Shown here: positions 61,439-64,000 of the stretch, piece by piece | How positions within the stretch are numbered: the first letter of the stretch is position 1 | Layout: the number at the start of each line of letters is the position of its first letter | Assembly: GCA_017470005.1 (NCBI GenBank) | Contig: JAFUFH010000086.1 | Span: 15,881 to 79,880, forward strand | Length of the DNA: 64,000 nt | From: Bacilli bacterium | GTDB taxonomy: Bacteria; Bacillota_I; Bacilli_A; RFN20; CAG-288 | Reading direction: 5' to 3' | Notes under the pieces: generated by a model | Seen by the model: only the letters and a program-made list of their open reading frames with translations | The model's database searches: none | What the model was told of the DNA's origin: nothing | Made by a program: the position numbers and the translations under genes

Positions 61439-63391
61439 ATGAAAAAGAAAACATTACCTTTATTCCTTGCTCTTGTCGCCTTTGGGCTAACTGCCTGCGG
61501 AGAAGCAAGTTCCACCACTCCTACTTCTCAAGACACTACCCCTACACAGACCACTGACACTACTAAAGATACTACTGCTAGTGAAACCACATCCTCTACT
61601 ACAAAAGGTTGGGATGATGCAACGAAAAAACTTTTTAAAGATCATCTTCACAACATCGATCTCCCTTACTTCCAATTAAATAATCAGACCGTTAATTACC
61701 TCGAAGGAAGAGAACTTATCGTCTTTGAAGCTACCGATTTAGAAGAAGGAGATTTAGAAGAAATCTCTAATTTATTTGTTGAAGATGGCTGGGATGGAGG
61801 CGATGTCTCTCAAAACATGGGAATGGAAGAAGATGGATATCTTTATTCCTACATGATTTCCACTTCCACCGATGAAGGAAATCGCTTTGTAGAAGTTGAT
61901 TTCTATTGTTATGAAACTTTAGTGGATGAAGAAGACCCTTCTGTCACTTCTGAAACTTATGCAAAGTCTGGCAACTTCCGCTTGACCGCATATGATCCTT
62001 ACACTTATGAATTCCCTACAGAGGAAGCGGATTGGCTTGCCTCTATCGTCTCTACCAATTTCTTCGAGCACACTCCTGTTCCTAGTTATGATGGTGCAGA
62101 ATACTATAAGGTCATACAAAACTTATCTGCGATTGGCGCTTATAAGCCCGGCTTAAACTCTAATGATGGCGGTTATACCACCGTATTAGAAGAAGCTGGG
62201 TTCAGTGTTTCTTTCAGCGATCAATTTGGTGCCTATGTTGGTACCCCTGAAGATAAGGATTATCAAATCTTATATCGTTATGATTTGACCAGTGGTATGT
62301 TCATGATGATGTTCTTTGAATATGAAGAACCTCTTGTTCCGTATAACGCTTGGAATGAAGAACAGATCGCCAAATTATTTGAAGATTATGGTATTGAGAA
62401 TTTCTCTTACACCATTCCCGCTTTAAATGTAGAGGGAGCTACCTATTATTACACAGGTGAATATGCTTCTAGCACTGGTTACATCTTAGTGCAAGGCGTC
62501 GAAGAAAAAGACTTCACCTCTTATCAAGCCACTCTCAAGAGTGCTGGATGGGAAATCAGCGAAGATGAATTCGATGAAAATGCGGTTCAATTCTCTAAGA
62601 AGATTGATAATAGACTTCCTGTTAACACGCTCTCCTATAGTGAAACTAACAGCTCTATCACCATCACCTTACAACTCAACCCTGATGTTGCTCCTTATGA
62701 TACTTTCCCAAAAGATATCATCCAAGAAAACTTGGTTTCTATGTATGGAGACGGATTCACTTATCAGATTCCCGCTTACAGCGGACAAGGTGTCAAACAA
62801 TACAAGGTCAATGGTAATTGCTTCACCTTCATCTTAGAAGATGGTGCGGATTTAGACGTTGTCCTTGCCGGATACATGAAAGATTTGGTCGCTGCTGGTT
62901 TTGTCCAAAAAGATGAGGCTACCGCAGTCACTGCCGATGAAATCTATCGTATCCAAGCCGATTTAGATTATATCTTAGGCACGATCGAATTCATGGTTGA
63001 CCTTACACCAGAGCCTATCCCTGTCTTTAACACTTTCCCGAAAGATAAACTCATCGATGACTTCAAGACACACAATCCTGACTTCAATGACACCATTATC
63101 GCTTTAGATGGCGGTGATGAATATAGCTATATCATCAATGTGTATGAAACCGATGTCTTTGGCTCCATTGATTGTCTCTTCACCAAAGGAGATATGAGCA
63201 AGATTGTCGCCGATTATGAGAAGGCCTTAAAAGATGCTGGCTTCACCGATTATGATCAGGAAGAACCCGGAAACGGAGAATATCTCTCTCCTAAAGGCCA
63301 ATACAAGCTCCGTGTTGAAGCGGACGATGATTACACTGGATACTTTGTCATCTCTTTGAATTTTGATGACATTGTTGACGGAACTCTTTAA
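61439..63391 (+). CDS. Hypothetical surface lipoprotein with a Thr/Ser-rich linker (650 aa)
   Basis: MKKKTLPLFLALVAFGLTACGE lipobox. TTPTQTTDTTKDTTASETTSSTT linker. Acidic, with no recognisable domain. Confidence 0.65.
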   Translation: MKKKTLPLFLALVAFGLTACGEASSTTPTSQDTTPTQTTDTTKDTTASETTSSTTKGWDDATKKLFKDHLHNIDLPYFQLNNQTVNYLEGRELIVFEATDLEEGDLEEISNLFVEDGWDGGDVSQNMGMEEDGYLYSYMISTSTDEGNRFVEVDFYCYETLVDEEDPSVTSETYAKSGNFRLTAYDPYTYEFPTEEADWLASIVSTNFFEHTPVPSYDGAEYYKVIQNLSAIGAYKPGLNSNDGGYTTVLEEAGFSVSFSDQFGAYVGTPEDKDYQILYRYDLTSGMFMMMFFEYEEPLVPYNAWNEEQIAKLFEDYGIENFSYTIPALNVEGATYYYTGEYASSTGYILVQGVEEKDFTSYQATLKSAGWEISEDEFDENAVQFSKKIDNRLPVNTLSYSETNSSITITLQLNPDVAPYDTFPKDIIQENLVSMYGDGFTYQIPAYSGQGVKQYKVNGNCFTFILEDGADLDVVLAGYMKDLVAAGFVQKDEATAVTADEIYRIQADLDYILGTIEFMVDLTPEPIPVFNTFPKDKLIDDFKTHNPDFNDTIIALDGGDEYSYIINVYETDVFGSIDCLFTKGDMSKIVADYEKALKDAGFTDYDQEEPGNGEYLSPKGQYKLRVEADDDYTGYFVISLNFDDIVDGTL

Positions 63392-63488: not shown

Positions 63489-63812
63489 ATGAAACACACA
63501 AACTTAGTTGACTTCCTTCTAGATGATAATAATACGGAACCCTTGATTCTCTCCACAGAGAAGGGTGGCCGTTTCAGTTTCGAGAAGATTGCCGTCATTC
63601 CTCACGAGAAAGAACTCTATGTCATCATGCGTCCTTTGTATAAGATTGAAGGCATGAAAGAGAATGAAGCTATCGTTTGTAAATTGGTCGGAGAAGGGGA
63701 TGATCAAAGACTTGATTTTGTCGAGGATCAAGCTTTGATCAATCTCATCTTTCAAAAGTATTACGAAGTCTTAAATTTCCAAGTCAACCACCTTGTTGAC
63801 CAACAGAAATAA
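63489..63812 (+). CDS. DUF1292 (UPF0473/YrzB-like) family protein
   Basis: 107 aa. The pattern E.G..F.F..IA.I..E..LYV.MRP...E...E..I.K is typical of this small Firmicutes family. Confidence 0.5.
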   Translation: MKHTNLVDFLLDDNNTEPLILSTEKGGRFSFEKIAVIPHEKELYVIMRPLYKIEGMKENEAIVCKLVGEGDDQRLDFVEDQALINLIFQKYYEVLNFQVNHLVDQQK

Positions 63813-63824
63813 AGTTACCACGAA

Positions 63825-64000
63825 ATCGAGTAGAGCGGCGAGGGTTTAATCTCGCCCGCCCTCTCACACCACCATACGTGCGGTTTTCCGCATACGGCGG
63901 TTCCAATCAACATAGCGAGCTTCTCCGTTCGAGGTAGTAGTTCGCTTGCCTTTTCCTCCTTTCCGCTCGGACTCCACTCTCCCTACGCTTTCCATCGGGA
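63825..64000 (-). mobile_element. 3' end of a group II intron (domains V and VI) on the minus strand, continuing past the right edge
   Basis: GC content is about 55%, against about 37% elsewhere. Minus-sense 63902-63869 reads CCGCCGUAUGCGGAAAACCGCACGUAUGGUGG. That matches the canonical domain V: a 9-bp lower stem with G-U pairs, a CGC catalytic triad, the AC bulge, a 4-bp upper stem and an A-rich loop. Domain VI, at about 63866-63826, is a hairpin with a bulged A 7 nt before a GAU 3' end. The intron lies 13 nt beyond the DUF1292 stop, on the opposite strand. Confidence 0.6.
63907..63999 (-). CDS. Possible C-terminal 30 codons of the intron-encoded protein (RT/maturase), partial
   Basis: An open frame ...PDGKRRESGVRAERRKRQANYYLERRSSLC* ends just 5' of domain V. 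It is Arg-rich and GC-rich. A second overlapping frame is also open, so the assignment is tentative. Confidence 0.3.
   Translation of the reverse strand, partial: PDGKRRESGVRAERRKRQANYYLERRSSLC

Follow-up and report, generated by a model that had tools for sequence, protein, structure and literature searches.

The GC-rich 3' end of a group II intron is found at the very edge of the 64-kb stretch of DNA analysed here (the window, 64,000 nucleotides), and the question that this locus raises is whether it belongs to a full-length element, with its reverse transcriptase (RT)/maturase gene just past the edge, or to something smaller. On the minus strand, the full RF00029 model (Intron_gpII, domains V/VI) matches positions 63825-63902 with 44.1 bits (E = 1.3e-6), over the gathering score of 40 bits that is its curated Rfam threshold, and this is the only above-threshold Rfam match in the 64-kb window. 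The initial annotation, which had proposed a group II intron seen from its 3' end on the minus strand together with an Rfam search of domains V and VI as a check, is borne out by this score. Domain V can be read directly in the sequence of the minus strand as CCGCCGUAU, the hairpin GCGG-AAAA-CCGC, an AC bulge and GUAUGGUGG, with CCGCCGUAU/GUAUGGUGG as lower stem and GCGG/CCGC as upper stem, and the CGC triad, the bulge and the upper stem named in that annotation are all there. The bulged A that it had placed 7 nt from a 3' end in ...GAU is found at 63831, the seventh nucleotide counted from the 3' end (...CUCUACUCGAU), and is the presumed branch point; among relatives, the domain VI stem shows compensatory variation and the CUCUAC branch motif is kept. 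The GC content amounts to 56.3% in 63825-64000 against 39.8% in the rest of the window, which agrees with the earlier figure of about 55% for the island and corrects that of 37% for the background. The coordinates of all features are collected in Table 1.

Table 1. Features of the intron locus (window coordinates unless L001 is indicated; L001 is the metagenome scaffold that extends the window).
Feature	Position	Strand	Remarks
3'-terminal 176 nt of the intron (intron positions 422-597)	63825-64000	-	L001 identity, collinear Rfam matches, empty sites
Intron positions 1-421	L001 10513-10933 (window-equivalent 64001-64421, past the window edge)	-	
5' arm of domain IV (DIVa-like stem-loops)	63944-64000	-	almost invariant in the family; helices 18-19 of the alignment
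Shine-Dalgarno AGGAGG of the lost RT gene	63955-63960	-	retained in domain IV; relatives have GGAAAGGAGGAAAAGACAAACGC then ATG AGC CTT CTC (MSLLEE...)
ORF deletion junction	63942/63943 (intron positions 479/480)	-	about 1.29 kb with the RT gene absent; BLAST breakpoint in relatives
RT/maturase ORF remnant	63907-63942	-	last 11 codons and stop, NYYLERRSSLC
Domain V	63869-63900	-	CCGCCGUAUGCGGAAAACCGCACGUAUGGUGG; CGC triad, AC bulge, 4-bp upper helix, AAAA loop
Domain VI helix	63828-63865	-	bulged A at 63831; direct reading and RF00029 match
Last three intron nucleotides, GAU	63825-63827	-	
3' exon start	63813-63824	-	UUCGUGGUAAC...; insertion point between 63824 and 63825
DUF1292 gene, convergent neighbour, not part of the intron	63489-63812 (stop 63810-63812)	+	PF06949, 28.3 bits, cut-off 24

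The remainder of the element was obtained from a 20-kb metagenome scaffold (ENA ERZ28656039:scaffold_228, L001), which was located through the exact DUF1292 protein and is 100% identical to the window across all 10,512 overlapping bases (window position = L001 position + 53,488). All sequence past 64000 is that of L001, and the deletion junction described below lies in the window itself. In this extension the GC-rich island continues to a length of about 600 nt, and the Rfam models D1D4-3 (domain I; 95.6 bits, threshold 32) and D1D4-1 (domains II-III; 44.8 bits, threshold 35) are found on the minus strand, collinear with RF00029 and, like it, over their curated thresholds. The 5' boundary GUGUG is located outside the window, at L001 10933-10929, so that the whole intron, GUGUG...CUCGAU, measures 597 nt. 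The expectation that domains I-III and a GUGYG start would be found past the window edge was thus correct.

Searching for homologues of the DUF1292 protein gave one cluster, which led to empty-site alleles in nine contigs of related strains (L004-L012; ...AATGCCGTTTTT/TTCGTGGTAAC...), in which the DUF1292 protein is 99% identical to that of the window. The empty alleles read ...CCGTTTTT/TTCGTGG..., and the filled allele carries the exact GTGTG...CTCGAT (597 nt) at the slash, with no target-site duplication and with a placement that is ambiguous by one T; its predicted joined exons read ...CCGUUUUU/UUCGUGG.... Both intron ends are therefore fixed independently of any model. Since the insertion is polymorphic between strains with a 99% identical DUF1292 protein, it must be recent. 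The first nucleotide of the 3' exon, a U, is the presumed IBS3. Short GC-rich hairpins are common beside gene ends and the RF00029 score is just 4 bits over its threshold, but the chance of a terminator-like or REP-like hairpin cluster with a fortuitous likeness to domain V, and of no intron at all, is practically negligible against two more collinear group II models (up to 95.6 bits), many homologues with RT genes, covariation that backs the fold and the precise boundaries given by the empty alleles. Two further observations were made at this locus. Just downstream of the insertion, the 3' exon of the intron allele is without the 5 nt CTCAA of the empty alleles L004-L012 (TAACTCAAACTTT versus TAACTTT). 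An independent assembly of the locus (L003, a Logan SRR12529371 contig of 980 nt) ends at window-equivalent 63849, 24-25 nt into the intron, as would be expected of an element present in several copies, or polymorphic, in the sample.

At the coding level, the evidence comes from the relatives of the intron. Similarity to it in BLAST breaks at positions 479/480 and resumes about 1.29 kb later in L019b, L024, L025, L026, L027, L028, L030, L032, L034, L035, L036 and L037. In L024, which shares 95.6% identity with the window copy over positions 1-479, the inserted segment encodes an intact 442-aa RT (MSLLEE...NPLKYYLKRREALC, stop), and the same holds, exactly at 479/480, for the inserts of L028, L034, L036 and others. 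The window copy has only 8 nt (AAAAGGCAAGCG) between the Shine-Dalgarno sequence and the 11 codons that are left of the gene, and the junction-specific sequence of this ORF-less form is GGAGGAAAAGGCAAGCRARCTACTACCTCGAA. The remnant (63942-63907; AAC UAC UAC CUC GAA CGG AGA AGC UCG CUA UGU UGA) corresponds to the C-termini of full-length relatives, ...KYYLERRKSLC in L019b and ...KYYLKRREALC in L024. In agreement with this, tblastn with the L024 family RT aligns residues 433-442 to window 63939-63910 and returns nothing beyond this 10-residue C-terminal remnant in the window and the 20-kb L001 extension, neither of which contains an RT-encoding partner. On the strand of the intron, ORFs reach 51 aa at most.

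The initial annotation had placed the body of the RT outside the window, to be sought on its right. The search carried out there with the family RT revealed no such body, and the ORF site proved to be inside the window, deleted, in an element of only 597 nt. Of the Arg-rich ORF tail that had been read just before domain V, the last 11 or so codons are genuine, and the Arg-rich part upstream of them is domain IV RNA and Shine-Dalgarno region that is in frame. A full-length autonomous intron, with the RT/maturase gene and domains I-IV just past the window, would account for the genuine domains V and VI and for the short stretch before domain V that is homologous to an RT C-terminus. However, it is highly improbable, given that the ORF site of the relatives falls within the window with just those 8 nt in it, and that on the identical scaffold the element is complete at 597 nt, its GUGUG abutting a terminator. 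The window element is very probably an ORF-less group IIC intron behind a terminator. It has retained, besides the Shine-Dalgarno sequence, the 5' arm of domain IV, which is the presumed maturase binding site by analogy with D4a, the maturase anchor in the structure of the Eubacterium rectale (E.r.) IIC RNP (PMC10190682).

On the protein side, the assignment to class C was examined in the full-length relatives only, through the domain content of their RT and the ranking of its PDB homologues. This family RT contains RVT_1 and GIIM domains only, with no HNH/En domain. Among solved structures, those nearest to it are 7uim, the IIC maturase of E. rectale (E = 1.2e-108 for L024 and 1.7e-157 for L019a), the R.i./E.r. 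RT domains 5hhj and 5hhl and the GsI-IIC RT 6ar1, all of them ranking far ahead of LtrA (IIA) and 6me0. The E.r. complex is a group IIC one (PMC10190682), and insertion behind an intrinsic terminator stem-loop (or an attC site) is the defining target of IIC introns (PMC4424553; PMC4748821). The class C character that had been read from the CGC triad and the insertion beside a gene end is in this way upheld, the family RT being nearest to solved IIC RTs, and the same proximity leaves the alternative classes E and F, also named at first, unsupported.

Pairing between the intron and its target provides another layer of evidence. The EBS1 loop GGC-AAAAA-GCG (positions 179-189, with AAAAA at 182-186) faces UUUUU at the end of the 5' exon and forms 5 bp with it. 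Across the family, this D1d terminal loop, GGC-NNNNN-GC, covaries with the last five bases of the 5' exon: beside AAAAA/UUUUU (the window copy, L024, L020 and L030), four compensatory variants are found, namely GAAAA/UUUUC in L028, AAAGA/UCUUU in L032, AAAAG/CUUUU in L017, L026 and L033, and CACAA/UUGUG in L019a. L035 and L037 do not fit this rule. No alignment column covaries with the +1 base of the 3' exon (U or C), and the candidate EBS3, by analogy with A231 of E.r., is an A of the coordination-loop region (GUAGA; A219/A221) that does not vary across the family.

The target itself is the terminator of a 92-aa gene (L001 10977-11255, minus strand; window-equivalent 64465-64743, shortly past the window edge). 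Read along the strand of the intron, the 5' exon ends in AAAACGGCAUU-UGUGC-AAUGCCGUUUUU, that is, in the terminator hairpin and U5 run of this gene, and a hairpin with a T-rich run precedes the intron in all 12 family copies whose 5' flank can be read. The terminator scan calls the hairpin on the plus strand only; the sequence also shows a T-run on the minus strand, that of the intron, so that the hairpin reads as bidirectional and probably serves both convergent genes. In the empty-site strains, the DUF1292 and 92-aa genes converge on a shared terminator hairpin across 61 nt. The intron 3' end lies 12 nt past the DUF1292 stop codon; it had been put at 13 nt, and the location on the strand opposite to that gene was correct. 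Insertion beside a gene end, which had also been noted, is likewise right, with the qualification that the relevant end is that of the 92-aa gene on the intron strand and not that of the DUF1292 gene. The terminator of the 92-aa gene is left in place, so that only read-through would carry transcription into the intron, the common situation for IIC introns. On the opposite strand, no other terminator-like site is predicted between the DUF1292 gene and the hairpin, and DUF1292 transcripts would have to run through 597 nt of intron in antisense on their way to it. As regards the neighbours, the 92-aa peptide, which has a 120-aa version in some strains, weakly matches Nif11-type leaders and has a GG motif (..AISGGG) as well as a zinc-ribbon-like C-terminal core (CxxC...CxxC), and in these sequence features it resembles a RiPP precursor. 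The plus-strand gene at window 61439-63391 encodes a predicted 650-aa lipoprotein with a signal peptide (LTAC), a Thr/Ser-rich linker and no Pfam match on record.

The integrity of the ribozyme was assessed against its family. More than 20 members were collected by using the 51-aa ORF that spans domains IV-V as a protein probe, with hits traced to contigs, and by two pattern scans and look-ups. Alignment A1 comprises 15 sequences over intron positions 1-479, and the structure tested on it combines the canonical D1 basal stems with RNAalifold helices; a local 5'-end pairing from unconstrained RNAalifold (columns 2-8 with 14-20) was replaced, as the canonical D1 basal stems covary better. In A1, 96.5% of the cells are paired and 36 of the 92 pairs show compensatory changes. 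None of 500 shuffles reaches these values, and slid partners give at most 49% pairing and at most 10 compensatory pairs. The window copy carries just two private substitutions at family-invariant columns of positions 1-479 (213 in D1 and 445 in domain IV) and has all core motifs intact, and nothing in its sequence points to inactivation. Its domain V lower stem contains one G.U pair (GUAUGG), which is G-C in nearly all relatives (GUACGG); this C-to-U change is rare and shared only by the window copy and the outer ORF-less copy of L015. The G.U pair or the AAAA loop of domain V, which is not a GNRA one, could weaken the ribozyme. The rare GUAUGG change also explains why an exact domain V-domain VI pattern scan of the genome contig collection found no match. 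A 23-mer from D1 was absent from the metagenome contig collection, this stretch being private to the window copy, and the phage collection contained no match to the intron.

An AT-richer expansion of about 50 nt in domain II (L001 10595-10668, intron 266-339, A1 columns 283-347) is carried by only part of the family, namely the window copy, the L015 outer copy, L024, L028, L029, L032 and L034; L029 and L032 join an L017-like D1 to a window-type D2, which indicates recombination between family members. In L024 (5189-5200, minus strand), the last 9 nt of domain VI and the 3' splice site are missing (...CCGCU/UUGCGCAAAUC), and judging from this sequence the copy probably cannot complete splicing despite its intact RT gene. 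Introns are also found within introns. In L019 (1520-3375) and L015 (1256-1350), a second IIC lineage, of the L019a type, is inserted within the first nucleotides of a resident family intron. Its junctions read ...hairpin-UUUUU-GUG/GUAUGACGGG...CUCGAU/UGACGGGCACG..., the resident GUGUG being split between G3 and U4, and they are found in front of two distinct resident introns, of which one has the ORF and the other lacks it. The EBS1 loop of L019a, CACAA, complements UUGUG, which suggests homing into the junction between a terminator and the 5' end of another intron. A twintron is present in L015 (1702-3669), where an intron of a different class (Rfam D1D4-6, 102 bits; AGC triad; domain V 53.7 bits; 441-aa RT) occupies domain III (CAUAGU/A) of an ORF-less intron with 98% identity to that of the window.

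The ORF-less form is not restricted to the window. The deletion junction is identical in three copies, those of the window, L014 and the L015 outer copy, and their 3' exons differ (TTCGTGG... in the window versus TTATGCC... and CCTTTTC... in the L015 outer copy and L014). Identity to the window intron is 98% over positions 4-358 and 92.6% over 355-597 in the L015 outer copy, and 83% in L014. The occurrence of the same junction with different 3' flanks argues that the deletion preceded at least some of the insertions, and it suggests that the ORF-less form spread after the deletion, presumably with an RT acting in trans. One deletion followed by several insertions, which implies RT mobilisation in trans, is the simplest reading, although recombination or gene conversion among resident copies could instead account for the shared junction, and the family does show mosaicism. 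With regard to a source of RT, relatives with an intact gene occur in rumen/gut MAGs of uncultured Bacilli, Ca. Enterosoma and Lachnospiraceae, and the MAGs that carry family members, together with the sample names, point to an uncultured Bacillota/Bacilli organism from ruminant gut as the probable host. Close RT homologues are for the most part on short contigs, of 1.5-3 kb, and all three of those examined on long contigs come from other samples than L001.

The main rival to a mobile element is a dead relic, that is, an intron that was inserted at full length, lost its ORF in situ and is now inert, neither splicing nor moving. In favour of this reading, the window copy lacks an RT in cis, its surroundings (the window and the 20-kb extension) contain no RT-encoding partner, its domain V has both the G.U variant and the non-GNRA loop, and another ORF-less copy, L014 (1-426), has lost 52 nt of domain I with the conserved GAACAGGAAC...AAGGCG segment and is evidently decaying. 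Loss of the ORF in situ is nevertheless hard to reconcile with one deletion junction in three copies with different 3' flanks, and an inert state with a recent insertion that is still polymorphic among strains and with so few private changes at family-invariant positions in a ribozyme of intact core motifs. A relic is consequently regarded as unlikely, without being remote. As to whether the window copy is still splicing-competent and mobilisable in trans, its sequence leaves the matter evenly poised. With a confidence that falls slightly short of even, it can be proposed that the ORF-less form is a non-autonomous, trans-mobilised IIC element, in effect a 'MITE' of group II introns, which has kept the domain IV arm for maturase binding and the EBS1 for terminator targeting and, with the RT of full-length relatives, is now spreading among uncultured rumen/gut Bacilli; this would explain both the single junction at three loci and the presence/absence polymorphism between strains.

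From the IIC literature we infer how such an element would move; its current catalytic competence, its mobilisation in trans and the origin of its RT are likewise inferred. A lariat RNA-RT particle would recognise the single-stranded DNA stem-loop, the intron AAAAA would pair with the UUUUU of the exon through the 5 bp of EBS1-IBS1, and the first U of the 3' exon would probably contribute a one-base EBS3-IBS3 pair. The RNA would then reverse-splice into DNA and be copied from a replication-fork primer, as class C RTs have no endonuclease domain. Since the window copy encodes no protein, lariat splicing or any further mobility must use an RT in trans, and that of a full-length relative would bind the retained and highly conserved domain IV arm. 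The host would not need splicing and the element would be essentially neutral cargo, because it sits behind a terminator and outside coding sequence.

Among known systems, the closest is the IIC intron and maturase of E.r. (7UIM/7UIN; PMC10190682), with which the family RT aligns end to end. The target logic is alike: a DNA stem-loop, a short spacer, an EBS1-IBS1 pairing of 4-5 bp on a U-rich run and a T of the 3' exon as IBS3. The position of EBS1 also agrees, 182-186 in the window intron and A184-A188 in E.r., the E.r. RNA being compared through its published positions (PMC10190682). Unlike E.r., the window copy has no maturase gene, its D2 is expanded by about 50 nt and its domain V loop is AAAA. 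O.i.I1 of Oceanobacillus iheyensis and B.h.I1 of Bacillus halodurans are IIC introns that insert after Rho-independent terminators (PMC4748821; PMC4424553). The window intron shares with them a location directly behind an intrinsic terminator, a small ribozyme and, in its family, an RT that lacks an En domain. Its CGC triad and J2/3-domain III motif (GUCAGCAGA...CAUAGUACCC) are, we presume, similar to those of O.i.I1 as well. However, O.i.I1 and B.h.I1 encode an RT and their ORF-less forms are laboratory constructs, whereas here the loss of the ORF is natural and common to several genomic copies. The group IIC-attC integron introns of enterobacterial plasmids (PMC3001079) are about 85% identical over 79 nt of domains V and VI at more than 200 plasmid loci, and the matches in the plasmid collection are confined to domains V/VI of introns of this type. 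They differ in that the similarity is limited to these domains, in their attC rather than terminator targets and in encoding an RT.

The remaining comparison is with the ORF-less group II introns of bacteria, an uncommon but already documented kind; existing knowledge of group II introns is unchanged by this example. Such introns are rare and are nearly always found in genomes that also carry related introns encoding an intron-encoded protein (IEP) (PMC4424553). The window intron resembles them in having all six ribozyme domains but no IEP (Simon et al. 2008, RNA 14:1704; PMC4424553). Like them, it is derived from RT-encoding introns (up to 95.6% identity), whose protein could act in trans. 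It differs from them in belonging to class C, in lying behind a terminator and in keeping a Shine-Dalgarno sequence and 11 terminal codons. For annotation, this means that a domain V/VI match at the edge of a contig does not imply that an RT gene follows. Its ribozyme motifs are intact, its insertion polymorphism can be dated and its sister copies bear the same deletion, and the window intron would make a convenient natural case for studying the mobilisation in trans of IIC introns by a related maturase.
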